This document shows, piece by piece, positions 5,468 to 25,523 of a stretch of DNA of 64,000 bases. This DNA is from a virus (taxonomy: Duplodnaviria > Heunggongvirae > Uroviricota > Caudoviricetes). The notes under the pieces are model-generated. The model did no database searches. It had not been told where the DNA came from and worked only from the letters and a program-made list of their open reading frames with translations. The first letter of the stretch is position 1, and every line of letters begins with the position of its first letter. The stretch lies in the IMG/VR virus record IMGVR_UViG_3300045988_154391; one strand, written 5' to 3'. The position numbers and the translations under genes are program-made.

Positions 5468-5956
5468 TCAAAACGGAATATCGTCGTCAAAGTCCATTGG
5501 AGGTTCGTTATTGGCGTTGCTCTGAGGTTTACCGCCACCACTGTATTGCTGGTGGTTTTGAGGTTGGTTTGATTGCCCCCAGCCATTTGAGGACTGTGAA
5601 TCGTCACGGCGAGCGCCGATCATTTGCATGGTGCCGCCCTGGCTGACGATAATTTCCGTCGTGTAACGTTCTACACCGGCGTCATCTGTCCACTTACGGG
5701 TTTTAAGTTTCCCTTCGATGTAGACCTGAGAACCTTTTCGTAAATACTCACTCGCAATTTCAGCAAGTTTTCCGAACAAAACGACTTTATGCCATTCTGT
5801 TTGCTCTTTCTGTTGGCCCGTTTGCTTGTCGCGCCATGATTCATTCGTTGCGATGCTGAGTCTTCCGACCGCTCCGCCATTTGGTATATACCTGATCTCC
5901 GGGTCTTGCCCCAGGGTACCAATCAGGATGACTTTGTTTACACCGCGTTGTGCCAC
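5468..5956 (-). CDS. ssb: Single-stranded DNA-binding protein
   Basis: Near-canonical SSB sequence ([19 protein letters not shown] ... acidic tail MDFDDDIPF); GTG start. Confidence 0.9.
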
Positions 5957-5975
5957 TTATCTTACCTAATAAAAT

Positions 5976-5992
5976 AAATTAATTAGAGCAAT
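5976..5992 (-). promoter_or_regulatory. C1 repressor operator upstream of ssb (Op21-like)
   Basis: Plus-strand AAATTAATTAGAGCAAT, one mismatch to the reverse complement of ATTGCTCTAATAAATTT, 20 nt upstream of ssb. Confidence 0.75.
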
Positions 5993-6016
5993 AATGTATA
6001 TCTTTGAAACGTGGCT

Positions 6017-6038
6017 AACAAGTGATTTGCATTATCCT
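6017..6038 (+). promoter_or_regulatory. Late-promoter-like element upstream of lyz
   Basis: AACAAGTGA-N7-TATCCT about 90 nt upstream of lyz; same architecture recurs upstream of prt, pacA, mat-like and the 43317 module. Confidence 0.4.
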
Positions 6039-6125
6039 GTGCCTTCTAAAGGGATCGAGTCAGTCGGTATTGGCGGTGAATGAGTGTTTGTCCTGGAGCG
6101 TAAAAAATTCGCTTATGAGGTCTTT

Positions 6126-6683
6126 ATGAAGGGAAAAACAGCCGCAGGAGGCGGTGCAATTTGCGCTATCGCGGTGATGATTACCATCGTGATGGGTAAT
6201 GGCAATGTGCGAACCAACCAGGCGGGGCTTGAGCTGATTGGTAACGCTGAAGGTTGCCGACGTGATCCATACATGTGCCCGGCGGGGGTATGGACTGACG
6301 GGATCGGTAATACACACGGGGTAACGCCGGGTGTGCGAAAAACCGACCAGCAAATCGCCGCTGATTGGGAAAAGAATATCCTGATCGCTGAACGCTGTAT
6401 TAATCAGCACTTCCGGGGCAAAGACATGCCCGATAATGCCTTCAGTGCAATGACAAGCGCGGCATTCAATATGGGATGCAATAGCTTACGGACCTACTAC
6501 AGCAAAGCGCGAGGCATGCGAGTAGAAACGTCCATCCACAAGTGGGCGCAGAAAGGGGAATGGGTGAATATGTGTAACCATCTCCCTGATTTCGTGAACA
6601 GTAACGGCGTGCCCCTGCGAGGTTTAAAGATTCGCCGTGAAAAAGAACGCCAGCTTTGCCTGACGGGGCTTGTCAATGAATAA
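6126..6683 (+). CDS. lyz: Endolysin (lysozyme) with N-terminal SAR segment
   Basis: MKGKTAAGGGAICAIAVMITIVMG hydrophobic N-terminus followed by a lysozyme-like body; ATG at 6126. Confidence 0.9.
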   Translation: MKGKTAAGGGAICAIAVMITIVMGNGNVRTNQAGLELIGNAEGCRRDPYMCPAGVWTDGIGNTHGVTPGVRKTDQQIAADWEKNILIAERCINQHFRGKDMPDNAFSAMTSAAFNMGCNSLRTYYSKARGMRVETSIHKWAQKGEWVNMCNHLPDFVNSNGVPLRGLKIRREKERQLCLTGLVNE

Positions 6684-6930
6684 ACTCCGGCAGCTCCGCC
6701 GACTTTCGACAATGAAGTTATCGCTGGCGGCGATAGTTTTTGACTCGATTTTCATGGCGGTATATGTGCTCAATGAGACGTGGCCACTGGAACCGCTATT
6801 GTATGCCGGGCTTCGGCTGTGCCTGACATTTTTGAGCATGGCTGCGAGATTGATGCAGCAGAAAGAAACCGCTTCAGATTGTCCACGCCGCGCGGTGCGC
6901 AAATATATGGCACGAAGGCGAAGGCGATAA
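6670..6930 (+). CDS. Small hydrophobic, Arg-rich protein (86 aa) downstream of lyz
   Basis: ORF overlapping the lyz stop; hydrophobic stretches; ends just before a terminator. Coding status uncertain. Confidence 0.3.
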   Translation: MSMNKLRQLRRLSTMKLSLAAIVFDSIFMAVYVLNETWPLEPLLYAGLRLCLTFLSMAARLMQQKETASDCPRRAVRKYMARRRRR

Positions 6931-6943
6931 TAGTTAACGAGAA

Positions 6944-6971
6944 CCCCGGCAGCTGCCGGGGTTATTTTTGG
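6944..6971. terminator. GC-rich hairpin terminator between lyz operon and pro
   Basis: CCCCGGCAG/CTGCCGGGG palindrome followed by TTATTTTTGG. Confidence 0.6.
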
Positions 6972-6974
6972 TGG

Positions 6975-9705
<2,731 letters not shown>

Positions 9706-9738
9706 TTAATTAGAATAATTCGCATCGTGTTTGAACGG

Positions 9739-9760
9739 AATTTAACACTAGTCACTTGTT
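9739..9760 (-). promoter_or_regulatory. Late-promoter-like element for prt
   Basis: Minus-strand AACAAGTGA-N7-TAAATT, about 43 nt upstream of the prt start. Confidence 0.4.
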
Positions 9761-9771
9761 AAGGATTACCA

Positions 9772-12700
9772 ATGAACAAGCTATCTATGGGGGTGTTTCG
9801 CTGTTCAAGTGTCAGCGAAATATTGAAATATATTAGGGCAATAACATCTCACCGAGCGCCGATTAGATACGGCGTGGAAAAGGTGGAAGGCAAAAGCTAT
9901 GACCGACTGCGCCGGGAGGCGAATCAGAAGGCGATAGATTTGCTTAATTCACTGGCGGACGGCGCGACACTGACAGATGAACAGCGCCAGATCCTGGCTG
10001 GGTACACCGGTGAAGGCGGCATTGGCGGGTCCGTCTCCGAATATTACACACCAAAGCCTATCGCTGAAGGCGTCTGGGAGATCATGAAGCTCTATGGCGC
10101 GGACGTAGGTAACACTCTGGAACCATCGGCGGGCACCGGCGTTTTTAATGAGACAAAACCGGTTGGTACGGTGATGACCGCGACTGAGATCAGCAGTGTT
10201 TCCGGTCGTATAAACCAGCTGTTACATCCGGAAGACAGCGTACAGATTTCCCCGTTCGAACAGCTGGCTATAAGCACACCTAACGATTCATTCGACCATG
10301 TTGTGGCTAACGTTCCGTTCGGCGGTCGTGATAACACACGCAACATCGATAAGCCTTACGCAGAAGAAACGGATATGGGGTCTTACTTCATGCTCCGCAT
10401 GCTGGACAAGATAAAGCCAGGCGGATTCATGTGCGTGATTGTGCCGCCGTCCATTGTTTCAGGTTCAAACATGAAGCGGTTACGCCTGCGCCTATCACGG
10501 AAAGCTGAATTTCTTGGTGCCCACCGCTTGCCTACCGGTACTTTTGACGCAAACGGGACCAGTACGGTCGTTGACGTGGTGCTGATGCGCAAACATCCGG
10601 CGGAGATGGCTGAGAAAATCCCCCTGGTGGATGAAGGCACTCTTGAATCGGCAAATGTGCTTTGGCCAACGTTTATTTCTGGCAAGTGGTTTGAAAAGGA
10701 CGGCCGCCGGTTTGTTCATGGCACCCAGGAGAAGGGATTCCAGGGGCGTATTGAGGTTCGTGCCGACGGGCAGATTGATAACCAGGCTCTTAAAGCGAAG
10801 CTGATTCATCGTTTCGAAAGTCGTATCGACTGGTCTTTGCTCGATATGGCTGAACCGTCACCGACAGCAGACGTTGTTGGTGAAGGGGAAATGCGCCTGA
10901 TTAATGGCGTATGGCAAAAATATGCTGGTGGTCGCTGGATTGAAGCTGATGCCGGGAAGGAACTTAAGATCGATGCTGCCAGTTATGGCGCGGATAGCTG
11001 GGAGGCTCTTCAGCGCAACCTGACTACAACAGAAGGCCGTCTCGGCATGACATTTACCCAGATGGCAAATGTCCGCGATAAGTACACCACATCAATCAGC
11101 GACGATATGGTGCAGCTGGTGGACTGGATTAACAGCCAGCCTGAAAAATACCGTGAACGCTTGTATCGCGGGGCGATGATTGGCCGGATGTTAATTGAAT
11201 ATCAGGACATGAAGGCCGCCGGGCATAGTGCTGAACAAATCGAACAGCAGCGCCTTTCTCTGGTATCCCGTTTGCAGGCAGAGATTGACCGTTTTGGTAA
11301 CCCCGGTCGCGGTCCGATAGCGAAATTGTCGGGGAGCGGTGCGCGCGCCTGGTTTGCTTTCCGTGGTGCAATTAAGCTGGATGGCACTATTTCTGACGAG
11401 CTGACAGGGAAGCTGGTTACGCATGATTCCAGCGCAAGTTATGACTCCACCAGCTATCAGGACACCCTGCGTTATCTCTATAGCGATCTCACCCGCGATC
11501 CAATCCAGCTCGATGATTTCCGCCTTGCGTTTACCGGCGAACTGCCAGCCAGTGATGAAGAGTTGCTTAATTTATTGGCCAGCACCCCTGGTATTGCGGT
11601 TTCACCGTATGGCGGGATTGTTCCGTTCGCCCGCGCCACCAGCGGCGACATTAACGAGATAGTGGCTCCAAAACAGGAATTCCTCGCCACACTCCCCGAC
11701 GGTCCAGTAAAGAACAACGTCCTTAATCAGCTGGCAGCTATCGAAGAGAAGCGCATCAAGACGCCAGCAGAGAATATCCGGTTTAAGCTCAATAGCCGTT
11801 GGTTCGACCGTTCCGTCATTCTGGAGTTTTTGCAGGAAAACGGCTATCCGGATCTGCGCTATGTGCAGTCAGTGCAGCTGGAAGGCGACGAAATGGTTTC
11901 TGACACCTATCACGGTGGTGATGGTCTGTTCGTCGGGCACCGATACGGTGTCGTCCAGCGCAAGGATAAAGAAACAGGTGAGATTCGCTACGAGTGGGAC
12001 CGTAAATCAGGTGAAAACGCGACCGGGTTCCCGGCACAGCTGGAAAAGTATCTCAATGGTGCGCGTATCGGTGGCAAAGATAGCGCGACGGCGAACGGCT
12101 ACCGCGAGCAGATGGCACTGCTTGAGGACCAGTTCAATAAGTGGATCAAGACGCACGATCGCTACGATGAGCTGGTTGCCAAATACAACGATGTGTTCAA
12201 TAGCAATATCCCGTATGAACACTCTGGCGATCCGCTTGGGTTGAAGGGATTAAGCGGTAAGCGCCAGCCATTTGATTACCAGAATAGCGAGGTGCGCCGA
12301 CTGTCCGAAGATGGGCGCGGCATCCTGGGCTTCGGCACCGGGCTGGGTAAAACCACGACCGCGCTGGCGCTTGAGGCGTTCAACTATGAGAACGGTCGCT
12401 CCACCCGTACTGCGTATGTAGTGCCTAAATCAGTGCTGGAAAACTGGTATTACGAAGCAAAAGAATTCCTGAGTGAAGAGGCATTCAGTAACTACCTGTT
12501 CGTCGGTCTTGATGTGCTGATGGATGGCGATCAGATTCGCCAGGTGCAGGTGCTCGATGAGAACGGTAAACCTGTTCTTGGTACTGATGGCACTCCAGTT
12601 ATGCGCGATGCTCTTAAGCTGGCAGATGAAGCCACTATCACGGCGCGGATGAACGCGATCCCGCACTCAAATTACCGTGCAGTCGTGTTTACCAAAGAAC

Positions 12701-15700
12701 AATACGCCCGCATTCCGCTACGTGATGACACCGTAGATGAGCATGCACAAGACATGCTTTATGACTTCGTTGCCGCCGGGCGCGTAGCCAGCGCAATGGA
12801 TTCCGACTCCCATCGTAAAGAGGCGGCGCGTCGCCGGGTATTGTCGGAGTATTCAGATACCGGTACCGAAAAAGCAGAGAAATATCCGTACTTTGAGGAT
12901 ATGGGCTTCGATAGTGTGATCGCCGACGAAGGCCACAACTACCGCAATAGCTATAAAAATGGTCGCGAAGCGTCACAACTGGCCTATCTGCCCACCAGCG
13001 CGGTGGCGCAATCGGCGCGGGATATGGCAATCAAAAACGCGTACCTGATGAAAAAGAATGGCGGGCGCGGGCCGGTTCTCCTGACTGCAACGCCAGTCGT
13101 TAACACCCCGATCGATGCATACAACATGCTTTCTCATGTTCTGCCGAAGGAATACTGGCAGAAGATGGGGATCTACGGTCCTGATGACTTCGTTAAATTC
13201 TTCGGCAAGACCAGGCTGGAAACGGTACAGAAAATCAGCGGTGAAGTTGAAGAAAAAATGGCGCTGGTGGGCTTTGAAAACCTTGATGCGCTGCGCGGTA
13301 TATTCCATCGCTGGGTAACGCTTAAAACGGCGGAAGACGTTAAGGATACCGTGGAGATCCCGGAGCTGGACGAACACCAGCAGGATGCACCACTTACTGA
13401 AGAACAACTGGCGGCGTATGAAGAATTGCGTCAGCAGGCGGAAGCGGCGGCCAAAGCCAACAATGGCGTAACGACCTCGGTCAATGAAGACGGCGTGATT
13501 GAGCACGAGAAAGCCCGTCCGATCTTCTCAATAATCAGGGATATGGACCGCGTATGTACTGACATGGACCTGTACTATCGCCGGATCACCTATCGTTTCC
13601 TGCCGGAGTACGCCGATGCGGTGCAGCAGCTGGCGGACAGTTTGCCTAAACAAGCCACCAGCGAAGACGACGACAGTGATGATTCAATCACGCAGCAATC
13701 GCAATACTCCCTGATAGATAAGGGCGAGTTTATTCAGTTGCAGGTTCCGGAAGCGTTCGAGCAGGAAGTGAATAAGCGCCTGGCCAGGTTTGGCATTGAC
13801 GAACAGACCGTAACTCACCCCGTTACGCCGAAATACGCGAAGCTGATCGCCACGCTGAAGGAGTTTTTCCCGGAAGGTAAGCAAATCATCTTCACCGATG
13901 AAAAAACGCAGCACCAGAAGCTCAAGCGCATTATCTGCAATGCTCTAAACCTTGAACCTTCAAAGGTGGGGATCCTGAATGCTCAGACGGTTGCCGAGGC
14001 AGGTAAAACCGGTAAGAAACTGAAAGCGGTTAAACCGCCGAAAGAGCTACCGGATGAACCAACAGATGCACAGATAGCGAAATACAACGAGCAAATGGCT
14101 CTGTATGACGCCTATATCGCGCAGCAAAATGAAATGTCGTTGGGCGGTCTGGAAAAGATTGCAGCCGACTTCCAGGAGGGCCGGACTCCGATCATCATCT
14201 GCAACAAAAAGGCAGAGGTGGGTATCAACCTGCATCGAGGAACGACTGACATCCATCATCTGACGTTGCCATGGACACCAGCCAGTATCGCACAGCGTAA
14301 CGGTCGCGGTGCCCGAGTTGGTTCCAACCGTGCAAGCGTTCGCGTTCACTACTACTGCGGCAAGGGTTCTTTCGATGAATACCGACTGAAGACGCTGAAG
14401 CGTAAAGCAGGCTGGATCTCCGATATCCTCCGCTCAGATAAGTCTGAAATGGAGAACGCCGACGCCAACGATATGATCGAAATGCAGATGTATACCGCTA
14501 AGGATGATGGCGAACGTCTGGCAATGATGCAGGTTCAAATGGATAAGGCGAAAGCCGCGCAACGCGCTCGCCAGAAAGAACAGGCTACTATCGACCTTCA
14601 GAACTACATCAAGGCGCAGCACGCAGCTGGCGAGGATGTGGAGGTACTTACCGCTGAATTAGAGCGAAGCAAAGCGGAACTTGAAAAGACCACCGCCGAG
14701 GTAGCTAAATTCAAACAGGCGGTAATGGCCAAAGCAGCTGATAACGCAGACTGGAAGGCCCGCTGGGGGAGCGTCCATCACACAGACCGTATGTTGTTAG
14801 CACAGTATCGCGCGTCGTTGAAAAACGCCATTCAGCGCAAGGCTAATATCTCTCAAGCCATCTCCCGCTATGAGAAATTATTGAACCGTACTCAGAAGGC
14901 CGCGACGGATATCAAACGCCTGCGCCCGCTGGTGGAGGATGCAATAAATAAAGGCATTCTGGATGTTGATCCTGACCTGGTTAACCATGCGAGTGAGTTC
15001 CTTGTTATCGGCGATCGCTCATGGCGTGTAGGCCAATACTACGATTGTGCCGGTGATATCGTTCGCATTAAGTCGCTGGACTTCGACAGCCAGCGCGCAG
15101 ACGTGGAGATCATCTTTACCTTCAAAGGCACCAAATCGGGTAACTGGGATGTGAAGACGCTGGATAAACAGGTTGATGTAACTCCCGATGAAGATGCTGT
15201 TATGCAGAAAATCAGTGGTGGCGTCTCCATCGCCGGGATTAACGACATCATTTCCTGTGACGATTTCTACCGTTTCCAGCAGCGCGGCATGATCAAAATA
15301 ACTGACTCGTACGGCGTTCAGACTACAGAGTCAGGCTATAGCATTGATTTTGTTGGTACCTATACGGACCCACTGAAGCATGCGGTTTACCCGGATCGCC
15401 GTGACGGCGCGCTGAAGTCGTCAATTGCAAAATGGGTGCTTGGTATGATGTCGGAAGGGAATAACCGCCAGGTCCGTTTGGCAGAAGTATTCCTGACTGA
15501 ACTGTTTGGCTCCAATTATGGCGATGTAATCGCGTCATACGGAGATACGCTATCCCCTGAAGCAATTCAGGAGAAAATAGCGGATGCGATCGCCAGAATG
15601 CCGGAGAAAACAAGCCAGGGGGCTACTCGTAACGGGGATTCTGAACTTGAGGTCACCAATGCCATTTTCGGTACCCATGAGTTCCGGGCGTCAGATTATG

Positions 15701-16539
15701 AGATCACCACAGCACAGTTTGGCACCATTGGCATTTACAGCAATAAAGACGAGATCAAGCAGGCAATGGACGCAGCAAGCGCGCGCATTGCAGCAGAACG
15801 GAAAGCCAATCTGAATCATGCAGTCGCCGCGCTGACTCAATCGTGGGTAACAGCAATCAGGGAGGCCGCCACCACAGGGAAAATCACACCGGCAATTGCG
15901 GATGTCGTAAACGACGGCTCTAAATTTATGGATGCCTATCAAATGGATGCGGTGCAGTTGCCATCAGCCTATGGGCAACTCAGCTATCGCATGACCTACA
16001 ACCTGGTATCAATGTTTACCGACCTTGCCATCCTTGGGCTGGTGGACCTTAACGAGGTTACGCCGGAATTACTCAGCATGCGCAAGAATCATGTTGAGAT
16101 ATTGCAGAGAATTAACACGGTTCTTGCCGGGCGCACCGATGAAGAGAAACAGGCCGACGCTGATCGGATAAACCTGGCCCTAGGCAACATCACGGAGGAA
16201 GAAATTGCCGCCAGAAACGAGAAACAAGAAGAGTTATCATCAATACAGGGTGATGCCACCAGCATAGCTCAGTCTCTTGGGCTGAATTATCGCGTATCCA
16301 CCGCCGACCTGAAGATGATGTACGCACCAAAATTCGCCGCTGGCGAGGTATTTGGGCTTCAGGAAGCCTCCGGCATGAAAGGGGTTCTTTTCCGTGCGAA
16401 AGACGCAATCAAGGCGAAATTCGGCGCTCGCTGGTTGCCAGCGAAGGCGAAGAACAGCGACTTCCCAGGTAACTGGTGGATTATCGAGACAAAACACAAC
16501 GTGGCGGACGTTCTGGCCGTCATCCAACAATACGCATAA
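9772..16539 (+). CDS. darB: DarB-like polyvalent antirestriction protein (methyltransferase + helicase), 2255 aa
   Basis: N-terminal MTase-like motif (NVPFGG), Walker A (GFGTGLGKT), DEGH box (ADEGHNYRN) and helicase-C region; size matches P1 DarB. Confidence 0.85.
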   Translation: MNKLSMGVFRCSSVSEILKYIRAITSHRAPIRYGVEKVEGKSYDRLRREANQKAIDLLNSLADGATLTDEQRQILAGYTGEGGIGGSVSEYYTPKPIAEGVWEIMKLYGADVGNTLEPSAGTGVFNETKPVGTVMTATEISSVSGRINQLLHPEDSVQISPFEQLAISTPNDSFDHVVANVPFGGRDNTRNIDKPYAEETDMGSYFMLRMLDKIKPGGFMCVIVPPSIVSGSNMKRLRLRLSRKAEFLGAHRLPTGTFDANGTSTVVDVVLMRKHPAEMAEKIPLVDEGTLESANVLWPTFISGKWFEKDGRRFVHGTQEKGFQGRIEVRADGQIDNQALKAKLIHRFESRIDWSLLDMAEPSPTADVVGEGEMRLINGVWQKYAGGRWIEADAGKELKIDAASYGADSWEALQRNLTTTEGRLGMTFTQMANVRDKYTTSISDDMVQLVDWINSQPEKYRERLYRGAMIGRMLIEYQDMKAAGHSAEQIEQQRLSLVSRLQAEIDRFGNPGRGPIAKLSGSGARAWFAFRGAIKLDGTISDELTGKLVTHDSSASYDSTSYQDTLRYLYSDLTRDPIQLDDFRLAFTGELPASDEELLNLLASTPGIAVSPYGGIVPFARATSGDINEIVAPKQEFLATLPDGPVKNNVLNQLAAIEEKRIKTPAENIRFKLNSRWFDRSVILEFLQENGYPDLRYVQSVQLEGDEMVSDTYHGGDGLFVGHRYGVVQRKDKETGEIRYEWDRKSGENATGFPAQLEKYLNGARIGGKDSATANGYREQMALLEDQFNKWIKTHDRYDELVAKYNDVFNSNIPYEHSGDPLGLKGLSGKRQPFDYQNSEVRRLSEDGRGILGFGTGLGKTTTALALEAFNYENGRSTRTAYVVPKSVLENWYYEAKEFLSEEAFSNYLFVGLDVLMDGDQIRQVQVLDENGKPVLGTDGTPVMRDALKLADEATITARMNAIPHSNYRAVVFTKEQYARIPLRDDTVDEHAQDMLYDFVAAGRVASAMDSDSHRKEAARRRVLSEYSDTGTEKAEKYPYFEDMGFDSVIADEGHNYRNSYKNGREASQLAYLPTSAVAQSARDMAIKNAYLMKKNGGRGPVLLTATPVVNTPIDAYNMLSHVLPKEYWQKMGIYGPDDFVKFFGKTRLETVQKISGEVEEKMALVGFENLDALRGIFHRWVTLKTAEDVKDTVEIPELDEHQQDAPLTEEQLAAYEELRQQAEAAAKANNGVTTSVNEDGVIEHEKARPIFSIIRDMDRVCTDMDLYYRRITYRFLPEYADAVQQLADSLPKQATSEDDDSDDSITQQSQYSLIDKGEFIQLQVPEAFEQEVNKRLARFGIDEQTVTHPVTPKYAKLIATLKEFFPEGKQIIFTDEKTQHQKLKRIICNALNLEPSKVGILNAQTVAEAGKTGKKLKAVKPPKELPDEPTDAQIAKYNEQMALYDAYIAQQNEMSLGGLEKIAADFQEGRTPIIICNKKAEVGINLHRGTTDIHHLTLPWTPASIAQRNGRGARVGSNRASVRVHYYCGKGSFDEYRLKTLKRKAGWISDILRSDKSEMENADANDMIEMQMYTAKDDGERLAMMQVQMDKAKAAQRARQKEQATIDLQNYIKAQHAAGEDVEVLTAELERSKAELEKTTAEVAKFKQAVMAKAADNADWKARWGSVHHTDRMLLAQYRASLKNAIQRKANISQAISRYEKLLNRTQKAATDIKRLRPLVEDAINKGILDVDPDLVNHASEFLVIGDRSWRVGQYYDCAGDIVRIKSLDFDSQRADVEIIFTFKGTKSGNWDVKTLDKQVDVTPDEDAVMQKISGGVSIAGINDIISCDDFYRFQQRGMIKITDSYGVQTTESGYSIDFVGTYTDPLKHAVYPDRRDGALKSSIAKWVLGMMSEGNNRQVRLAEVFLTELFGSNYGDVIASYGDTLSPEAIQEKIADAIARMPEKTSQGATRNGDSELEVTNAIFGTHEFRASDYEITTAQFGTIGIYSNKDEIKQAMDAASARIAAERKANLNHAVAALTQSWVTAIREAATTGKITPAIADVVNDGSKFMDAYQMDAVQLPSAYGQLSYRMTYNLVSMFTDLAILGLVDLNEVTPELLSMRKNHVEILQRINTVLAGRTDEEKQADADRINLALGNITEEEIAARNEKQEELSSIQGDATSIAQSLGLNYRVSTADLKMMYAPKFAAGEVFGLQEASGMKGVLFRAKDAIKAKFGARWLPAKAKNSDFPGNWWIIETKHNVADVLAVIQQYA

Positions 16540-16572
16540 CAGGAGCGCCCGGTTCGCCGGGCGTCGCATAAT

Positions 16573-17013
16573 ATGGCCACACTATCTGATACAATAAAAC
16601 CGAATAAAACATATCTTGAGGCGGTACTCCGTACAGCGTTGTTAGGAAAGACAGAAGACGAATACGTTGATTTCTTCCTGTCAGGGCTACGCGGGCGATT
16701 ACTGAAAAATCCCCGCCTGTACCGCAGCTATGGTCCATACTGGCCGGAAATTAAAAAATTATTACTGGAGCGCGGTTATGGTAATTTCGGTCGTCTCGTT
16801 GACCGTGACGTTCGCAAAATTTACCGTTATGACCGCCCGGCGCTAACACTCATAGCCGCGACGCTCTACAGCCAGGAGCGTTTTGATAATGGTCAGATAT
16901 ACTCAGCCTGGCATTTACTGCCAGTGCCTGAAGAAGTTGACGACCAGGACTATGAGTTTGAGTCTTACGATTTGGAAGTTGAAGCCTTGGCACAGGCTGG
17001 AGAGAAAACTTGA
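16573..17013 (+). CDS. ulx: Ulx-like protein downstream of darB
   Basis: 146-aa ORF in the position of P1 ulx; identification by synteny only. Confidence 0.55.
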   Translation: MATLSDTIKPNKTYLEAVLRTALLGKTEDEYVDFFLSGLRGRLLKNPRLYRSYGPYWPEIKKLLLERGYGNFGRLVDRDVRKIYRYDRPALTLIAATLYSQERFDNGQIYSAWHLLPVPEEVDDQDYEFESYDLEVEALAQAGEKT

Positions 17014-17258
17014 AAAAGCGATACTACACAGTAAAGCATGGGACGCTACGAGCATTACAAGAGTTTGCTGACAAGCATAACGTTGAGGTGCGCAGGGAAG
17101 GGGGAAGTAAAGCTCTGCGCATGTACCGCCCGGACGGGAAATGGCGGACGGTCGTCGATTTCAAAACTAACAGTGTTCCCCAAGGTGTCCGCGATCGGGC
17201 ATTCGAAGAATGGGAGCAGATCATCATAGATAACGCATTGCTCCTGAATGCTGATTAA
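17010..17258 (+). CDS. lxc: Lxc/Bof-like C1 co-repressor (82 aa)
   Basis: 82-aa ORF with TTG start overlapping the ulx stop; size and position match P1 lxc (bof). Confidence 0.6.
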   Translation: MKKRYYTVKHGTLRALQEFADKHNVEVRREGGSKALRMYRPDGKWRTVVDFKTNSVPQGVRDRAFEEWEQIIIDNALLLNAD

Positions 17259-17297
17259 ACTTTCCGCCCTTTTGCCCGGTCTATCGCCGGGCATCTT

Positions 17298-17939
17298 TCA
17301 GAGATAATTACCTTTACCCGTCAATTCCCCTTGTGGTACTTGTTTTTGCGCCAGTGTTTGGGTTCCGCGAATTATGTTAATCAGAGGGCTTAGTAACGAT
17401 GGTTCCTGGCGTGCCTCAACTTCTCCAGCCATTGCCCTGATGTAGTCGGCGCTGGCAACGTTGTTGTATTCCGTCGCAAAGCAACATAGTAACGTCAGAA
17501 CATGCTCTGTCGTTATTTCGCTCCAGTTGATGTTGAAAAATTCATCGCCTTTTTTATCGTGTTCGGAATCGAAGATGCTTTGGTGGAGGATGTATTTGCC
17601 GGATTCCTTGCGCGGTAACTTGATTGCTTTCTGGCGTTCCAGCTCCTTATAAATCTGCATTGCCTCAATTAGTACCGGCCTGCCGTTCATGAAGGGATCG
17701 CGCAACCTTACACGCTGGCCAACTCGACCAGTAATAAAGCTGTTTTCCTCTTCCACCAGCACGATAAACCCCTTTTCCTCTTTTTCTCGCAATTCGCGCA
17801 GCAGATGGAGTTCCATATCGCGGCGGCGTTCAGGGTAGCTGGTCCGCTCAGCCATTATCAGCTCGTTATTGATCCATGCAGCAGTCATTGACGCCGGTTT
17901 GCCGACGCTCATCGAAACAACGCATATTTTCTTATCCAT
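17298..17939 (-). CDS. mat: Mat-like protein
   Basis: ATG at 17939 preceded by AGGGGG (track ORF extends to 18086); lies between ref and lxc as P1 mat does. By synteny only. Confidence 0.45.
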   Translation of the reverse strand: MDKKICVVSMSVGKPASMTAAWINNELIMAERTSYPERRRDMELHLLRELREKEEKGFIVLVEEENSFITGRVGQRVRLRDPFMNGRPVLIEAMQIYKELERQKAIKLPRKESGKYILHQSIFDSEHDKKGDEFFNINWSEITTEHVLTLLCCFATEYNNVASADYIRAMAGEVEARQEPSLLSPLINIIRGTQTLAQKQVPQGELTGKGNYL

Positions 17940-18128
17940 AGCGCCCCCTACAAAAAAGAAAAGCCACCAGCGGCGGCTTAGCAATACAACAGAAGGTAGC
18001 GCCCGGTACTCAGACTGTGCCGTCCATGGAATATTTGAAAAGGGATCCATCCGTACCGGGCGTGTGATGATTCTGACTGAAGTCACTTGTCAGTTGTCAA
18101 TCATTTATCATTAAAAATAATATATTTA

Positions 18129-18689
18129 TTAGTGCATGATGTTTGCCATCTCATAGGCGTCAGCCAGTAACTCCATCTCTGACTTGTTCAGCAGGGTGAA
18201 TTCTTTCTTGCCTCCAACCACACCATCGGCATGAACAGGGACCAGCCAGGGGTATTTTGCTCTTACTTCAGCCGGTGCTGCATGCTGGTGGTGCCATCTA
18301 CAAAGTGGCAATTGCTTTTTATGACAACCCGGCGCGGTACGACCGGCGATATGGTGCAGAGACACCTCATTAGATATTACTCCATGCATATAGCAGGCAA
18401 TGCAGGGGAGAGCGCCAAGAGCATTGGCGATGCGCCGTTCCTCCGCCGTTGGTGTTCTCCCCTTCAAGCCACGAGATTTTATTTTTACCGCGCTTTTCCG
18501 CGTTTTGCTGGCTGGTGGGCGCTCTTTCTGTTTAGCGATACGGCGGTCGATAGTATCCCGCATTTTCTGATATTGAGATTCTCGCCAGACCGGATCAGCC
18601 AACTTTTCCCGTTGCCGAGCGATCGCTCGTTCTCTGGCTGCCTTCTGCCACTTGCGGCACTGTTCAATTTTTTGTTCGATTGTTTTCAT
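18129..18689 (-). CDS. ref: Ref, recombination enhancement function (HNH endonuclease)
   Basis: 186-aa protein with HNH-type Cys/His motifs (CIACYMHG ... HH ... CRWHH); size and sequence match P1 Ref. Confidence 0.85.
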   Translation of the reverse strand: MKTIEQKIEQCRKWQKAARERAIARQREKLADPVWRESQYQKMRDTIDRRIAKQKERPPASKTRKSAVKIKSRGLKGRTPTAEERRIANALGALPCIACYMHGVISNEVSLHHIAGRTAPGCHKKQLPLCRWHHQHAAPAEVRAKYPWLVPVHADGVVGGKKEFTLLNKSEMELLADAYEMANIMH

Positions 18690-18695
18690 ATGGTC

Positions 18696-18721
18696 AAAAA
18701 AAAGGCGGCCTAATGGCCGCC
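18696..18721 (-). terminator. Terminator-like hairpin plus U8 in the ref leader
   Basis: Minus strand reads GGCGGCC-AUUA-GGCCGCC-UUUUUUUU, ending 6 nt before the ref ATG, downstream of the Op2-like operators. Confidence 0.45.
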
Positions 18722-18774
18722 TATGATGTCAAGGAGTTAAGTAATGGCACGTCTTCGTAGTTGACAAAAACTGC

Positions 18775-18804
18775 GGCTCAATTATAGCAATAAATTAGAG
18801 CAAT
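18775..18804 (-). promoter_or_regulatory. Overlapping C1 operators upstream of ref (Op2a/Op2b-like)
   Basis: Two overlapping cores ATTATAGCAAT (18781-18791) and ATTAGAGCAAT (18794-18804), about 90-110 nt upstream of ref. Confidence 0.7.
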
Positions 18805-18911
18805 TGTAGACATTTCATTTATCGATAATCACATTTTTTCTCTTCAGTGCCTGTGTGCTATACTCCTTCTTGATTGATTGGATGCGGAATACAAACCCGC
18901 TCTTTTGTGCA

Positions 18912-18938
18912 GCCTGGCTCCTTGCCAGGCTTTTTTTT
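18912..18938 (+). terminator. Plus-strand intrinsic terminator at the cra-like gene 3' end
   Basis: Stem GCCTGGC/GCCAGGC with loop TCCTT, followed by T8. Confidence 0.5.
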
Positions 18939-19248
18939 ATTTCATCATGGAAGCTGTTAACGCTTTGGACCTTGCTGAACTGATTGAAAGGGCATTGTTT
19001 ACCTTACCCAGGAGTTCGCCAAATTCCCCCATCACTCTAGTAAGCCCGCGCCGCGCTTCCTCCTCCGTTGCATTCATCACAAAATGTTCAGCACTCCGCA
19101 TGCTTTTAACGGGGAACGCAACAGATATCGAGTCGATATCAGGCATCCTATCGCTCAACTTTACGGTGACAATGACAGATGGTGACTGAATTTGAGAGCT
19201 TACAGACAGCACCACATATTTTCCGTCTATTTTGAATTCCTTCCGCAT
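18937..19248 (-). CDS. cra: Cra-like small protein downstream of cre
   Basis: 103-aa ORF 50 nt after the cre stop on the same strand, the position of P1 cra. Confidence 0.45.
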   Translation of the reverse strand: MRKEFKIDGKYVVLSVSSQIQSPSVIVTVKLSDRMPDIDSISVAFPVKSMRSAEHFVMNATEEEARRGLTRVMGEFGELLGKVNNALSISSARSKALTASMMK

Positions 19249-19264
19249 GTGTCACCATAAATAT

Positions 19265-19281
19265 CAAATAATTAGAGCAAT
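19265..19281 (-). promoter_or_regulatory. Degenerate C1-operator-like site between cre and cra-like gene
   Basis: CAAATAATTAGAGCAAT; ATTAGAGCAAT core conserved, three mismatches in the AT-rich arm. Confidence 0.4.
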
Positions 19282-19298
19282 CAAGCGCAAATGAACGG

Positions 19299-20330
19299 CT
19301 AATCGCCATCTTCCAGCAGGCGCACCATTGCCCCCGTTTCACTATCCAGATTACGGATATAGTTCATGACAATATTTACGTTGGTCCAGCCACCAGCTTG
19401 CATGATCTCCGGTATTGAAACTCCGGCGCGGGCCATATCTCGCGCGGCTCCGACACGGGCACTGTGTCCAGACCAAGCCAGGTACCTCTGGCCAGAGTCA
19501 TCCTTAGCCCCGTAAATCAATCGGTGAGTTGCTTCAAAAATCCCTTCCAGGGCGCGAGTTGATAGCTGGCTGGTGGATGATGGCGAGGCAACACCATTTT
19601 TTCTGACCCGGCAAAACAAGTAGTTATTCGGATCATCAGCCACACCAGAGACAGAAATCCATCGCTCGACCAGTTTAGTTACCCCCAGGCTAAGCGCCTT
19701 CTCTACACCTGCGGTGCTAACCAGCGTTTTCGTTCTGCCAATATGGATTAACATTCTCCCACCGTCAGTACGTGAGATATCTTTAACCCTGATCCTGGCA
19801 ATTTCGGCTATACGTAACAGGGTGTTATAAGCAATCCCCAGAAATGCCAGATTACGTATATCCTGGCAGCGATCGCTATTTTCCATGAGTGAACGAACCT
19901 GGTCGAAATCAGTGCGTTCGAACGCTAGTGCCTGTTTTGCACGTTCACCGGCATCAACGTTTTCTTTTCGGATCCGCCGCATGACCAGTGAAACAGCATT
20001 GCTGTCACTTGGTCGTGGCAGCCCGGACCGACGATGAAGCATGTTTAGCTGGCCCAAATGTTGCTGGATAGTTTTTACTGCCAGACCGCGCGCCTGAAGA
20101 TATAGAAGATAATCGCGAACATCTTCAGGTTCTGCGGGAAACCATTTCCGGTTATTCAACTTGCACCATGCCGCCCATGACCGGCAAACGGACAGAAGCA
20201 TTTTCCAGGTATGCTCAGAAAACGCCTGGCGATCCCTGAACATGTCCATCAGGTTCTTGCGAACCTCATCACTCGTTGCATCGACCGGTAATGCAGGCAA
20301 ATTTTGGTGTACGGTCAGTAAATTGGACAT
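19299..20330 (-). CDS. cre: Cre tyrosine recombinase
   Basis: 343-aa protein starting MSNLLTVHQNLPALPVDATSDEVRKNLMDMFRDRQAFSEHTWKMLLSVCRSWAAWCKLNNRKWFPAEPEDVRDYLLYLQARGL, essentially the P1 Cre sequence; loxP about 415 bp upstream. Confidence 0.97.
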   Translation of the reverse strand: MSNLLTVHQNLPALPVDATSDEVRKNLMDMFRDRQAFSEHTWKMLLSVCRSWAAWCKLNNRKWFPAEPEDVRDYLLYLQARGLAVKTIQQHLGQLNMLHRRSGLPRPSDSNAVSLVMRRIRKENVDAGERAKQALAFERTDFDQVRSLMENSDRCQDIRNLAFLGIAYNTLLRIAEIARIRVKDISRTDGGRMLIHIGRTKTLVSTAGVEKALSLGVTKLVERWISVSGVADDPNNYLFCRVRKNGVASPSSTSQLSTRALEGIFEATHRLIYGAKDDSGQRYLAWSGHSARVGAARDMARAGVSIPEIMQAGGWTNVNIVMNYIRNLDSETGAMVRLLEDGD

Positions 20331-20558
20331 TTAACACTCAGATAATGGTTTAAGTAAAGTGTACAGGATCGGCTCTGCCTTTACCTGTTTATGATTCTCG
20401 TCATAGAAACGCCAGCGACCGCGCGTGCGTTCTATTTTCTCTTCACCGCGCGATAATGACAGTTGACAACTATCACGATCAAACCCTTTTGCCCGCCAGT
20501 AACCACGGTTTTTCTCAAGCTCAAGATGAGTGGACACTTTAGCAGCTGAATATCCCAT
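20331..20558 (-). CDS. Small basic ORF (75 aa) immediately upstream of cre
   Basis: Stop TAA directly abuts the cre ATG; start preceded by GAGGTG and the recurrent CCAATCAATCA motif. May instead be non-coding cre promoter region. Confidence 0.3.
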   Translation of the reverse strand: MGYSAAKVSTHLELEKNRGYWRAKGFDRDSCQLSLSRGEEKIERTRGRWRFYDENHKQVKAEPILYTLLKPLSEC

Positions 20559-20747
20559 TTTTCACCTCTGATTGATTGGTGGTGCTAAGTGCGCTACGCG
20601 AAATCTGGAGCACTAACACTGCCAACATTTCGCAGATTTTACGTAGCGCAACCTTGATCAAATGATCAAGTGATCACTATTTGACCTGATAAGGTATTGA
20701 ACTGTATGGATTTACAGGTAAATTGATCATGTTCAATAACCCTTAAG

Positions 20748-20781
20748 ATAACTTCGTATAATGTATGCTATACGAAGTTAT
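20748..20781. other. loxP: loxP recombination site
   Basis: Exact 34-bp ATAACTTCGTATA-ATGTATGC-TATACGAAGTTAT. Confidence 0.97.
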
Positions 20782-20824
20782 TAGGTCTGAAGAGGAGTTT
20801 ACGTCCAGCTGCGCATAAAAATCA

Positions 20825-20841
20825 AGAATTATTAGAGCAAT
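20825..20841 (-). promoter_or_regulatory. C1 operator (Op99 cluster-like) between loxP and coi
   Basis: AGAATTATTAGAGCAAT, two mismatches to the operator reverse complement. Confidence 0.65.
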
Positions 20842-20907
20842 AAATTTTGAGAGAAAAATCCCACTCCACCAGCCAAAAACTGGATTGTTTTTCATAGTTG
20901 TTTGACA

Positions 20908-20924
20908 ATTGCTCTAATAAATTA
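20908..20924 (+). promoter_or_regulatory. C1 operator (Op99 cluster-like), inverted partner of 20825-20841
   Basis: ATTGCTCTAATAAATTA, one mismatch to consensus. Confidence 0.75.
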
Positions 20925-21162
20925 TAGTTTTGCCGCCGTTACGTAATACGACTTTGGATTCACTATTTAATGTGTCTTCAGCGTTGTAGAGCGGCTCAGA
21001 AGGAAATGAGCAAACAGGGAAACCTTATACAACGGCATTACAGCTATGCATTGCTCATCTTACACACAGCGCAATGTTGTTAGATTACCCCAGCATGGAT
21101 CATGGGTGAAACAGTAGGTCAGAGCTTCAGGCTCTGTGTTGTCAATACAGTGAGGCATAATT

Positions 21163-21372
21163 ATGGCTTTCATTCAACCAACCATCGACGACGTTAGACA
21201 TTGCTCTAACGCTTTATCTGTAGACCCTGCCGAAACCGACGCTGCCCGCGCCATTGCTGAACACTACTCAAAGATATCCAATCAGGAGTACCGCATCACC
21301 CAAGACGACCTGGATGACCTCACTGACACAATCGAATATCTCATGGCAACTAACCAGTTAGACTCACAATAA
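21163..21372 (+). CDS. coi: Coi, C1 inactivator
   Basis: 69-aa ORF directly upstream of c1 on the same strand, as in P1 immC. Confidence 0.85.
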   Translation: MAFIQPTIDDVRHCSNALSVDPAETDAARAIAEHYSKISNQEYRITQDDLDDLTDTIEYLMATNQLDSQ

Positions 21373-21482
21373 ATGCACTAATAAATCTATTATTTTTGTT
21401 TGATCCCTCTATAATATAGGTCAGTAATGACCGGTTTTCTCAGCCGGGCGTTATTGACCATGTCAATTCTGGAGGAGGATCA

Positions 21483-22334
21483 ATGATAAATTATGTCTAC
21501 GGCGAACAACTGTACCAGGAGTTCGTCAGCTTCAGGGATCTCTTTCTAAAAAAAGCTGTTGCACGCGCCCAACACGTTGATACAGCCAGCGACGGTCGTC
21601 CTGTACGCCCGGTTGTCGTTCTACCGTTCAAAGAAACTGACAGCATTCAGGCTGAAATTGATAAATGGACTTTAATGGCGCGGGAACTGGAACAGTACCC
21701 AGACCTCAATATCCCAAAGACTATTTTATATCCAGTGCCTAACATCCTTCGCGGTGTGCGCAAGGTTACAACTTATCAGACAGAAGCTGTGAACAGCGTC
21801 AACATGACCGCTGGCCGCATTATTCATCTGATTGATAAGGACATTCGCATCCAAAAAAGCGCGGGGATCAATGAGCACAGTGCGAAATACATAGAGAACC
21901 TGGAAGCAACAAAAGAGCTAATGAGGCAGTACCCGGAGGATGAAAAATTCCGTATGCGCGTACACGGCTTTAGCGAAACAATGCTGCGCGTCCACTACAT
22001 TTCCAGTAGCCCTAACTACAATGATGGTAAATCAGTTAGTTACCATGTGCCACTGTGTGGCGTGTTTATCTGCGATGAAACTCTCCGTGATGGAATTATC
22101 ATCAACGGTGAATTCGAAAAAGCAAAATTTAGCCTTTATGACTCCATAGAACCGATCATCTGCGACCGCTGGCCGCAAGCAAAAATATATCGCCTGGCAG
22201 ATATTGAAAATGTAAAAAAACAAATTGCCATCACTCGCGAAGAGAAAAAGGTTAAGTCAGCCGCATCAGTTACGCGCAGCCGTAAAACCAAGAAGGGGCA
22301 GCCAGTAAACGACAACCCCGAAAGCGCGCAATAA
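21483..22334 (+). CDS. c1: C1 repressor
   Basis: 283-aa protein starting MINYVYGEQLYQEFVSFRDLFLKKAVARAQHVD, matching P1 C1; strong GGAGGAGG SD. Confidence 0.95.
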   Translation: MINYVYGEQLYQEFVSFRDLFLKKAVARAQHVDTASDGRPVRPVVVLPFKETDSIQAEIDKWTLMARELEQYPDLNIPKTILYPVPNILRGVRKVTTYQTEAVNSVNMTAGRIIHLIDKDIRIQKSAGINEHSAKYIENLEATKELMRQYPEDEKFRMRVHGFSETMLRVHYISSSPNYNDGKSVSYHVPLCGVFICDETLRDGIIINGEFEKAKFSLYDSIEPIICDRWPQAKIYRLADIENVKKQIAITREEKKVKSAASVTRSRKTKKGQPVNDNPESAQ

Positions 22335-22338
22335 ATTA

Positions 22339-22365
22339 TGCCCGGCATCAACCGGGCATTCTTCC
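22339..22365. terminator. Hairpin terminator between convergent c1 and antirepressor-like gene
   Basis: Stem TGCCCGG/CCGGGCA with T-rich flanks on both strands. Confidence 0.5.
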
Positions 22366-22366
22366 A

Positions 22367-23482
22367 TTATTCAGCTGCCACCGGTTTTAACAAGCCAGCA
22401 TCGAGCAGTTTACGCGTCAACCACTGCTGGCCTTTACCCGTTAATTGAGGCGTCAACCGTATCTGGTAGCCATCTTCATCATCCAGCACCACTTCTTTCA
22501 CCGTGAAATACCCCGCGTTGATGTACTGCTGGAACGGCACATTTTTACGTCCACCGGACGCTATCAGGATGCCGTTCTCCCGTAACCAGACAAACAGCGC
22601 GTTTTGCTTAAGTCCAACAACCTTTGCAAAATTCCCAATCAGGATCCCTTTAGCTACTGATACCCGGTCGGCAAAATCGACTTTAGGAGCGGCGGCCACC
22701 AGCTGCTGATTTAGCTGGTGGGCTTTCTGTTCCAGAAGCTGCTTTTGTTCAGCCAGTTCGGCAGCCAGGCGCAGAGCTTCTGGAAGCGTCTGGGGGATTG
22801 CAACCGGTTGCTGTTCTTTTTGCCGGAAGTAGCTGTCTTCCAGTTTTTCAAAGAATGCCCATGCCTGATCGGTTTCGAGCATTTTAGCGTGGCGGGCTGC
22901 GCCGCGTTCCGTCCAGAGGATGAGTGAGCGGGCTTTAGGAGAGATAGGATTTTGTGAGTTACTTAAAGTCACCCGCAAATTGTTCAAATCATCTCCAATA
23001 ACTTTATAGAAATGCTTGCCTTCACAAAAACGTTCAGCATTACGGGAAAAGTTCTTCTTGATGTTATCCGCATCTGTCCCATACCCCTTAGCAAGGATCT
23101 TAGTTGTCACTACACGCACTCCCTGCCACTCTAGAACGGGAATTTCATCCGGCTGACTTTGAACAACCACCAGTTCTGATTCCTGAACTAAAGGTGTATT
23201 AATTTTTTCAGATTTAACGTTAGTAGCTTTCATTCTGTGTGCCTCCTTGCGTGTTTCGGCTGCGACGGTTGCGTAATTCAGATGCCCCTGTTCGAGCAGG
23301 TATTCACGGATATCAGACAGCAGGATACGGTGAACAGCGTTCTTGTCCTTTCTCCGGTAAAGTTGTTTGGTGATCATGAAGTAGTTGGCAATAACGCCTG
23401 GTATATCCCTGGTACTGATACAGGCAGTGTGCTGTTCAATTGCCTCGATCATCTCTTCACGGGTGACTAATGACGTTCTCAT
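22367..23482 (-). CDS. Antirepressor-like protein (ORF6N-like N-terminal and KilA-C-like C-terminal domains), 371 aa
   Basis: ORF6N-like region (VVTTKILAKGYGTDADNIKKNFSRNAERFCEGKHFYKV ... SPKARSLILWTERGAARHAKML) and KilAC-like C-terminus (NFAKVVGLKQNALFVWLRENGIL ... YINAGYFTVKEV). Strong internal start at 23233 (AAGGAGG) is an alternative. Confidence 0.7.
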   Translation of the reverse strand: MRTSLVTREEMIEAIEQHTACISTRDIPGVIANYFMITKQLYRRKDKNAVHRILLSDIREYLLEQGHLNYATVAAETRKEAHRMKATNVKSEKINTPLVQESELVVVQSQPDEIPVLEWQGVRVVTTKILAKGYGTDADNIKKNFSRNAERFCEGKHFYKVIGDDLNNLRVTLSNSQNPISPKARSLILWTERGAARHAKMLETDQAWAFFEKLEDSYFRQKEQQPVAIPQTLPEALRLAAELAEQKQLLEQKAHQLNQQLVAAAPKVDFADRVSVAKGILIGNFAKVVGLKQNALFVWLRENGILIASGGRKNVPFQQYINAGYFTVKEVVLDDEDGYQIRLTPQLTGKGQQWLTRKLLDAGLLKPVAAE

Positions 23483-23700
23483 AGTCCCTCCTGAGCAGAA
23501 GCGTTAACAGGGAGGCACCAGTAACTGAGAGAATTGCGTGAATCAGTGGAAAAACGGGCAGAGAAAATACATGGGGCGTCAGGAAGCTGAGAGCGGGCCT
23601 CATCTTCTGTCGGTGCAATAACGAAGTGATAGTGACGTTTTTGGCAGGAGTAAAAGCGCCAGATAAATTCAGGATGAGTTGGGGTAGGGATAGTAGCCAT
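23479..23700 (-). CDS. Small ORF (73 aa) translationally coupled to the antirepressor-like gene
   Basis: ATG at 23700 preceded by AAGGAGG; its stop overlaps the downstream start as ATGA. Confidence 0.3.
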   Translation of the reverse strand: MATIPTPTHPEFIWRFYSCQKRHYHFVIAPTEDEARSQLPDAPCIFSARFSTDSRNSLSYWCLPVNASAQEGL

Positions 23701-24018
23701 ATTGGCAGCCTCCTTAGACGTTGGTATGTAACCACCGCAGAAGAGACCAATCTTGCTGGCGGTGGACTGTACGGAGTTGGCCTTACTGGCGTCCAAGGTA
23801 ACCAGCCTACCCGAAGGTAGCCCCATACAGCCCACCATTGTAGAGGTGTGCGTGTACGCCGATACAAAAAAAGACGCGAGCGGCGTCTGTATCGCCTTAG
23901 ACTTAAGCGGGAGGCCAATCCCGGCACCCGTTTTAATGAGGTGCCTGATAAGCATAAACCGAAAATGCCTCAAGGCGCAAGAGGTCAGGTTCAATGTAAC
24001 ATCGGCAGTTAAAAAACA

Positions 24019-24035
24019 CAATTTATTAGAGCAAA
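24019..24035 (-). promoter_or_regulatory. C1-operator-like site just downstream of pacB
   Basis: CAATTTATTAGAGCAAA, two mismatches, both terminal; lies upstream of the antirepressor-like operon. Confidence 0.5.
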
Positions 24036-24038
24036 TAT

Positions 24039-25523
24039 TCATTCATTAAGCCATGCCAGAGCTTCATCAACCTGCGCTTCGTCTTCGACGCTAAGCACTT
24101 CATCCTGGGGAACATAATCCGCCAGCATAGCGAAACAATATGTATCCCAATGGTCTGGTGAGTGCAGGTTGAGTTTTTTCTTCATATCCTCCTTACTCAT
24201 CACCTTCCATTGACCTGCGGAGTTAATCCCTACAGGGATTTTCGACGCTTCCTCAATAGTTTCATTACCCTTATCCAGTCTCATACGACCAGATTTTACG
24301 GCCTCTGCGGCTTGAACGTTGGCATAAGCACGTTTATCAAAGTACAGGCTCTTATCTTCACGGCTATGCATCTTTTTACCCCAGCGTATACGCTGTACGG
24401 TAATACCATAATACTCGTACATCAGATCCGCCGTTGCTTTACCCAGCCCATCACCGTCTATCGCTATGGTGATATTTGGAAATCGCTCAGGATTACATTC
24501 TGCGAAAATTTTGGCGGCAAGCTGCGTTTCTGTAACGTCTGTGTATTCCAGCATTCGATAGTTGATTACACGGCGTTTATTTCTCTGGCCGGACACCATC
24601 ATGATATTGATAACGGACTTATCCCGTCCCGTACCACCAGCAACGTCCACACATGCAAGCCAGCCCCATCCTTTGGCAATCTTGACTTTCCGCCGCGTCG
24701 CACGTTCAACCTCATCACGTCCAAGAAGGAAGCCATCCTGTGATTTAGGGAATAGTCCGCGTACCTTAATCATGTACATAGGGTTATCACGCCCGCCGTA
24801 CTCCGCCAGCTTCATTTTGATAAATGCTGGCGTTACCAGCGGTGATTCCTCACTGTTAAGCGTGATCGCCGTATAAACGCCATCAGGGTTACCAGGACGC
24901 TTGGCCAGTTTATGGTGAGTATCGTAGAAATAGCCGCTTGGGCGTGTAGGCTGTGACAGTAATAAGATGCGGTTATCCTGTCCGGTAAGAGCACCGGTGA
25001 TGATACCGAAAGCTCTATCACTGACACCGGAGGCTTCATCGATAATATACAGAAGATGATCTGCGTGTTCACCGGCGAGAGCTTCTTCACTTCCCAGACG
25101 AAAGCCCTTCGGTACTACAGTCCATACACCTTTACCAGTAACCTCATAGAAAGCGGTTTCTGTCAGAACAAAATAATCAGCAAGCCATGGAAAACGGCTG
25201 GTGGCAGTAGCCCAGTTTATCTTGATGTACTTGAATATACCGGTCATTACCTGCTGAATTTTGTTCGCAACGATAATGGCGCGGGCACCGGGATACATGA
25301 TTATGAACAACATGATCATGATAGAAGTCATGTCTGATTTCCCGGTACCGTGACCAGACGAAACAGATGTCTTGCTACCCTGTTCCTGCACAGACTCAAT
25401 AATCAGATCCTGCTGCCAGGTAGGTGTTTTGCCGAACAAAACATCAGCGGCAGCAATCCAGTCATAACGATATAGCGCCACCAGCTCGCGCCAACGTGGA
25501 TCCGTTACGCAACTTCTGGCCAT
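24039..25523 (-). CDS. pacB: Terminase large subunit PacB
   Basis: 494-aa protein with terminase ATPase/nuclease organisation; start overlaps the pacA stop. Confidence 0.9.

Follow-up and report, generated by a model that had tools for sequence, protein, structure and literature searches.

The DNA analysed here, hereafter the window, is a 64-kb stretch of a P1-like phage-plasmid, with a GC content of 48.5% and an orientation reversed relative to the P1 reference. Using megablast, window positions 5000-22000 match P1, P7, RCS47, SJ46 and their relatives at 97-98%. The ORF listing and the annotations of P1 and RCS47 give the gene order cre-c8-ref-mat / lxc-ulx-darB (Table 1). The lxc gene ends with a TAA codon at 17256-17258 and the mat gene, read on the minus strand, ends with a TGA codon at 17298-17300. 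Both ORFs are intact and the space between their stop codons is exactly 39 bp, in agreement with the distance of about 40 bp given for lxc and the mat-like gene in the first-pass annotation.

Table 1. Positions of the genes and other features discussed in the text, in window coordinates.
Feature	Position	Strand	Description
Ossb, C1 operator (former Op21)	5976-5992	-	exact match to P1 21015-21031
darB	9772-16539	+	2255 aa, 99.0% identical to P1 DarB; backbone anti-restriction gene
ulx	16573-17013	+	146 aa, 98.6% identical to P1 Ulx; Ulx-like anti-restriction; one operon with lxc
lxc (bof)	17010-17258	+	82 aa, 100% identical to P1 Lxc; C1 repressor modulator; left border of the slot
39-bp spacer	17259-17297	.	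between the convergent lxc and mat stops; empty state of the res-mod slot RD-1
Stem-loop	17273-17293	+	GC-rich, inside the spacer
mat	17298-18050	-	maturation control gene bounding the slot on the right; product of 250 aa with 96% identity to P1 Mat
ref	18129-18689	-	ORF listing and P1/RCS47 annotation
c8	18937-19248	-	ORF listing and P1/RCS47 annotation
cre	19299-20330	-	ORF listing and P1/RCS47 annotation
loxP	20748-20781	-	exact 34-bp match; P1 coordinate 1 aligns to window 20764
Hairpin, ant terminator	22340-22357		GCCCGGCATCAACCGGGC
Antirepressor	22367-23482	-	ORF6N and KilAC domains
C4 antisense RNA	23755-23842		75.9 bits
isrK-like RNA	23867-23944		

Comparison with P1 (NC_005856) by blastn shows what is missing between these two stop codons. 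Window positions 5267-17265 align with P1 21740-9743 at 98.4% identity and positions 17329-20764 align with P1 3437-1 at 95.9% identity, while P1 3438-9742 is replaced by 63 bp of the window. According to the P1 annotation, the replaced interval carries res (3544-6456), a mod gene interrupted by IS5 (IS5 at 7652-8846) and the promoters of both genes. The stop-to-stop distance is 6,281 bp in P1, so that the direct adjacency of mat and lxc seen in the window is not shared by this phage, and 5,082 bp once IS5 and its 4-bp duplication are subtracted, which is the exact slot length of the IS5-free type III alleles in IMG/VR. The EcoP1I res-mod genes, placed between mat and lxc of P1 in the first-pass annotation, are indeed found there in P1 and P7 and are absent from the window (blastn, tblastn). 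The distance from Ossb to the lox centre is 14.78 kb in the window versus 21.02 kb in P1. These 14.78 kb plus a slot of 5,082 bp bear out the expectation that an insert of about 5 kb would bring ssb to about 20 kb from loxP, in line with the former operator name Op21.

The slot is the one that holds the EcoP1I (EcoP7I) cassette in P1 and P7, with the lxc and mat stops as borders and flanking proteins 96-100% identical. Both flanks (95.9-98.4% by blastn, 96-100% for the proteins against P1) keep the synteny of the RD-1 slot of Punavirus P1-like phage-plasmids, and the breakpoints relative to P1 (P1 9743 and P1 3437) coincide with the published borders of RD-1, described by Venturini et al. 2019 as P1 3,469-9,749 and as res-mod with IS5 (PMC6906374). 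The content differs: P1 encodes Mod and Res in the direction of lxc, with no hairpin downstream of that gene, whereas the window has only 39 bp and a hairpin. The bases common to the window spacer and the ends of the P1 cassette are limited to about 8, just beyond the lxc stop, with no similarity otherwise, and neither direct repeats nor target duplications were found at the slot borders in the junction sequences inspected.

The spacer reads ACTTTCCGCCCTTTT-GCCCGG-TCTATCG-CCGGGC-ATCTT. Its core, GCCCGG-TCTATCG-CCGGGC, forms a stem-loop of 8 pairs, 6 of them G-C, as in the GC-rich stem-loop of intrinsic terminators; the folding energy of the surrounding 56-nt segment is -16.8 kcal/mol, with a z-score of -2.46 relative to shuffled sequences. 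On the lxc strand, the tail AUCUUUC contains 4 T in 8 positions, which is below the threshold of a simple terminator scan, hence the lack of a call; on the mat strand, the stem is followed by AAAAGGG, with no U-tract. An Rfam scan at gathering thresholds detected no known RNA family in the spacer. A hairpin is also present at 45 nt or less from the lxc stop in representatives of all the other slot alleles except type III R-M (55-nt segments, -12 to -25 kcal/mol), and in this sole exception mod-res read in the lxc direction. Judging from the sequence, the stem-loop is probably a minimal intrinsic terminator of the darB-ulx-lxc unit; it would most likely end the darB-ulx-lxc transcript and thereby keep antisense transcription out of mat. 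Three copies of the motif GCCCGG-N3-9-CCGGGC are present in the window (16547-16562, 17274-17292 and 22340-22357), compared with 0.03 expected. All three copies are intergenic and lie beside stop codons, and identical stems with other loops are found downstream of lxc in several other slot alleles.

We then searched for res-mod or any other R-M system in the 64 kb. Using tblastn, P1 Res gave no homologue in the 64 kb (best E = 0.77), nor did P1 Mod rebuilt without IS5 (best E = 4.0); neither a Res of about 970 aa adjacent to mod nor an N6-adenine Mod of about 650 aa is thus present. An ORF of 995 aa (487-3474) has the size of a Res, but it encodes DdrB (Pfam ddrB-ParB). The only methylases in the window are those of the backbone genes darB and dmt. 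The statement that no restriction or modification ORFs occur nearby is therefore right for R-M systems and too broad for individual domains, given the N6-methylase and SF2-helicase domains of darB (Pfam N6_Mtase, SNF2-rel_dom, Helicase_C and a weak ResIII) and the methyltransferase encoded by dmt (53785-56373; C5-cytosine methylase domain N-terminal, D12 Dam-type domain C-terminal). The genes darB, dmt and ddrB belong to the P1 backbone and are not an R-M system. The dmt product is 861 aa long in the window versus about 754 aa in P1.

This absence is read from 64 kb of an element of roughly 93-98 kb. A type III or other R-M system could sit elsewhere in the element, for example in another variable region: about 30 kb fall outside the window, and a type I R-M system is reported in the pmgT-lxr region (RD-5) of other P1-like plasmids (PMC6906374). 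We consider such a relocation very improbable. Besides the tblastn results for the 64 kb, RD-5 of the window (about 30030-37193) carries genes of the lambdoid ea22/DUF551/ASCH type, and its single PADLOC match is marginal (PD-Lambda-4_A, E = 0.0036, 13 bits); more generally, PADLOC gave no credible match to a defence system among 10 ORFs from the non-P1 segments. As for the remainder, the closest relative at the slot is the E. coli plasmid EC23 p2, which is 100% identical over ulx-lxc-mat but not identical to the window as a whole (97.5% in ddrB, coordinates offset by about 0.9 kb). Its part lying beyond the coverage of the window (about 34 kb) contains backbone genes only, with no Res or Mod match. 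The presence of res or mod elsewhere in the element, named in the first-pass annotation as a refuting finding along with a direct mat-lxc adjacency in P1, is thus not observed in the 64 kb or in the EC23 p2 remainder.

To determine how often the empty junction recurs, a 1,514-bp ulx-lxc-mat query was run against PLSDB and matched 703 plasmids, 80 of them in one piece. The 101-bp junction (17240-17340) was found at a coverage of at least 80% in 32 of the about 703 PLSDB plasmids possessing the region. The region was also present in 706 of 5,426 complete E. coli genomes, and 36 of these 706 display the empty junction, one of them on the chromosome. This chromosomal case (NZ_CP093011.1, E. coli strain 131, about 4,439,245-4,440,762) suggests an integrated P1-like element. 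An IMG/VR scan with Lxc yielded 80 loci, 73 of which had both borders, and the DNA between the borders was clustered. The 39-bp spacer was found in 7 of these 73 loci, plus one locus (L055) with an empty 29-bp variant. The element is thus among the roughly 5-10% of P1-like phage-plasmids with an empty res-mod slot, a rough frequency given that IMG/VR loci and database plasmids are redundant and non-independent samples. The 39-bp spacer was not detected by blastn-short in P1 or in the cargo alleles L004-L009. A loss or collapse of the cassette during assembly has almost no chance of explaining the junction, which phage RCS47 and dozens of plasmids finished independently share base for base, with both flanking ORFs intact and ending with proper stop codons.

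Among phage records, RCS47 (FO818745 / NC_042128) alone is empty at the junction. Phage JL22 was also considered: its alignment, although confined to one site, is split in two by about 1 kb of additional DNA, i.e. a small cargo. RCS47 has the same 39-bp spacer except for one loop base and the same Mat C-terminus except for one residue, and its ulx-lxc-mat region aligns as a single piece with 98.5% identity. The window therefore carries the RCS47-type cargo-free allele, defined by the spacer ACTTTCCGCCCTTTTGCCCGGTCT(A/G)TCGCCGGGCATCTT and the Mat tail ...QKQVP(Q/R)GELTGKGNYL. The two elements also share the RCS47/SJ46-type repA region (97.7%) and the extra ant module beside c1, as described for RCS47 in PMC6906374. 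In contrast, RCS47 covers only 45% of the pmgT-lxr variable region of the window and is interrupted near isaA by IS26/blaSHV-2, an insertion not seen in the window. Because of these differences, its backbone is considered as related to that of the window but mosaic. The PLSDB backbones that best match window positions 16000-40000 have RelA/SpoT or SIR2 in the slot, and their coverage never exceeds 92%.

In the IMG/VR survey, at least 12 alternative cargos occupy the slot at the same borders, and many of them match defence-candidate profiles. They comprise SIR2-like genes in two variants (11 and 2 loci), DUF2971 / PDC-S31 (10 loci), GNAT (7 loci), type III R-M (7 of the 73 loci), PIN (6 loci), RelA/SpoT / PDC-S33 in two variants (6 and 3 loci), icd-ant with JukA (4 loci), YaaC with a nucleoside deoxyribosyltransferase-like gene (4 loci), AraC with EAL (4 loci) and a small lipoprotein (1 locus). 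The same cargos were found in the sampled PLSDB plasmids, together with one more icd-ant allele. Their GC content ranges from 32 to 43%, below the value for the whole window, and is 35.7% for the type III R-M allele. Owing to these allele counts, the R-M state of P1 is a minority state just like the empty one.

That the slot is a known variable position, as proposed in the first-pass annotation, agrees with both this survey and the literature. In Venturini et al. 2019, res-mod is missing in all three (3/3) P1-like plasmids of the study and the site is termed a hot spot (PMC6906374), and in Zhang et al. 2022, res-mod is variable region 1 among 54 P1-like elements (PMC9603915). In a 2025 survey, no more than about 28% of the P1-like elements of E. 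coli had a recognised defence system, the systems found including type III R-M, dGTPase, PrrC and CapRel, with type III R-M in only a minority of P1-like phage-plasmids (bioRxiv 10.1101/2025.09.12.675607). The feature is thus real and already known: it is an allele without cargo of a variable slot described in the literature. The available text of PMC6906374 and PMC9603915 presents res-mod as replaced by other ORFs and does not spell out a fully cargo-free state or an allele-specific mat tail.

The two borders of the slot do not behave in the same way. Similarity among slot alleles stops at the lxc stop or within a few bases of it, while at the other border it is lost within the mat coding sequence. 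Compared with P1, 9 of the 10 differences in Mat fall in the last 51 residues, six of them in the last 19, and the last 100-150 nt or so of mat (about 17298-17440) are diverged and allele-specific. Across alleles, the identity of mat to the window is 62-85% in the last two 60-nt bins and mostly 95-100% upstream; the SIR2 allele reaches 95% in the penultimate bin. Accordingly, when diversity among 71 loci is counted in 50-nt bins starting at the mat stop, it amounts to 30%, 26% and 14% in bins one to three and to 1-7% further on; it is 0-6% on the lxc side. The diverged tails nevertheless keep the reading frame and the motif VPxGxLTGKxNY. Among P1-like elements (window and L004-L091), the C-terminal 20-40 residues or so of Mat are hypervariable and co-vary with the slot cargo. 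A functional match between this C-terminus and the cargo, beyond simple hitch-hiking, is conceivable but unlikely. The tail of the empty allele is private: over the last 60 nt, it matches the sampled cargo alleles at 24/30 and 23/30 positions at best. We therefore regard the empty allele as a distinct haplotype and not as a fresh deletion of EcoP1I.

This divergence weighs against a single recent event in which a P1/P7-type ancestor carrying EcoP1I would have lost its 5-kb cassette. Such a deletion would fit the presence of res-mod at this place in the reference phages P1 and P7, and a clean deletion would also leave a spacer without similarity to the flanks of the P1 cassette. It is nonetheless largely refuted, and we give it very little credit. 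The empty allele and the type III R-M allele agree at only 18/30 and 21/30 positions in the final 60 nt of mat, i.e. 21 differences; no remnant of res or mod was found; and the spacer has a sequence other than that of P1, with a left half that also occurs in an icd-ant cargo allele. Moreover, the identical junction is widespread over hosts and continents, and type III R-M too is carried by a minority of loci (7/73), with a low GC content of the kind expected of acquired DNA. A derivation of the spacer from this icd-ant allele (L010/L011) was also rejected: the left half is shared, but the mat side of that allele is P1-like, which does not correspond to a simple deletion.

We therefore consider the window as carrying a naturally circulating cargo-free allele of the lxc/mat cargo slot (RD-1) of P1-like phage-plasmids, with a probability of about 0.88. 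On a neighbour-joining tree of the conserved flanks, the 14 allele states need 30 Fitch changes (minimum 13, shuffled mean 53) and the nine empties need 6, these switch counts being approximate as the flanks are recombining DNA diverged by about 1% and are rearranged in three of the loci. The flanks nearest to those of the window on this tree belong to DUF2971, GNAT, YaaC or R-M alleles. Since the alleles are scattered over the tree, the suggestion that the empty state helps to classify the element is weak: with alleles reshuffled among backbones, the state of the slot classifies poorly. Such a scattering fits an exchange of cassettes through homologous recombination in the flanking genes. The AT-rich cassettes would be swapped by crossovers falling in lxc/ulx at one border and within mat at the opposite one; a cassette would therefore carry along the diverged 3' end of mat that belongs to it. 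The cargo-free state would be one such exchangeable haplotype.

The GCCCGG-loop-CCGGGC hairpin next to lxc could itself be a joint for the gain or loss of cassettes, through stem microhomology, template switching or structure-specific recombination, but we regard this as unlikely. The 29-bp cargo-free allele L055 (IMG/VR UViG_3300045988_152416, about 9250-9278) has a hybrid hairpin, in which the left arm and the loop are those of RelA/SpoT-b, while the right arm, like the mat tail, is that of the 39-bp empty allele. In the icd-ant allele (L010/L011), the sequence follows the window spacer up through the left arm, then continues with the own hairpin of the ant module, GCCCGGCATCAACCGGGC, which is also found at the c1/ant junction of the window (22340-22357). 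The excess of the motif in the window hints at joints within the stems, although these resemblances could equally be coincidence among similar terminators.

Without the cassette, the host probably gains no EcoP1I-type restriction, and the DNA of the element should lack AGACC methylation, which would affect the hosts that its virions can enter. An addiction based on R-M would likewise be absent, while the anti-restriction genes of P1 (darB, ulx and ddrB) and the orphan methylase gene dmt are kept. Very little depends on this finding, the variability of the slot itself being already published. A single, sharply bounded slot with twelve or more cargos, most of them defence-like and each tied to its own mat 3' end, may nevertheless be of modest use for the mapping of defence hot spots.

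Finally, the window also departs from P1 at other published hot spots of the RD-1 to RD-5 series, namely isaA/IS1, repA, tciABC and pmgT-lxr. A non-P1 segment at about 22334-24040 corresponds to an extra ant/C4 module. This second immI-like module (22340-23944) lies between c1 (21483-22334) and the pac genes, an arrangement reported for RCS47. The replication region (59972-62222) has a repA of the RCS47/SJ46 type and not of the P1 type, with a T5orf172/GIY-YIG-like gene (61346-62155) between repA and parA. RD-5 (pmgT-lxr, 30030-37193) is about 7 kb long in the window versus about 2 kb in P1 and contains early genes of lambdoid-prophage type (ea22/ead-like, DUF551, ASCH), parts of which are 96-99% identical to Stx-converting and CUS-3-like phages. 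The tciABC region of P1 is replaced at 51040-53109 by a gene for an SPFH/Band-7 lipoprotein (51140-51967), and this stretch carries four tRNA genes (Met-CAT, Ser-TGA, Thr and Asn). The non-P1 segment within it (about 51121-52541) comprises the SPFH protein gene and the tRNA-Ser gene (52448-52534), the latter having no counterpart in the available part of the P1 annotation. In two relatives, L093 (Cronobacter pCrono684-2, 5494-6849) and L092 (EC23 p2, 33641-34849), RD-2 beside ssb holds an anti-phage dGTPase gene, and TnpB is found between the darA operon and ddrB; other variable regions of P1 therefore also gather defence or mobile cargo.
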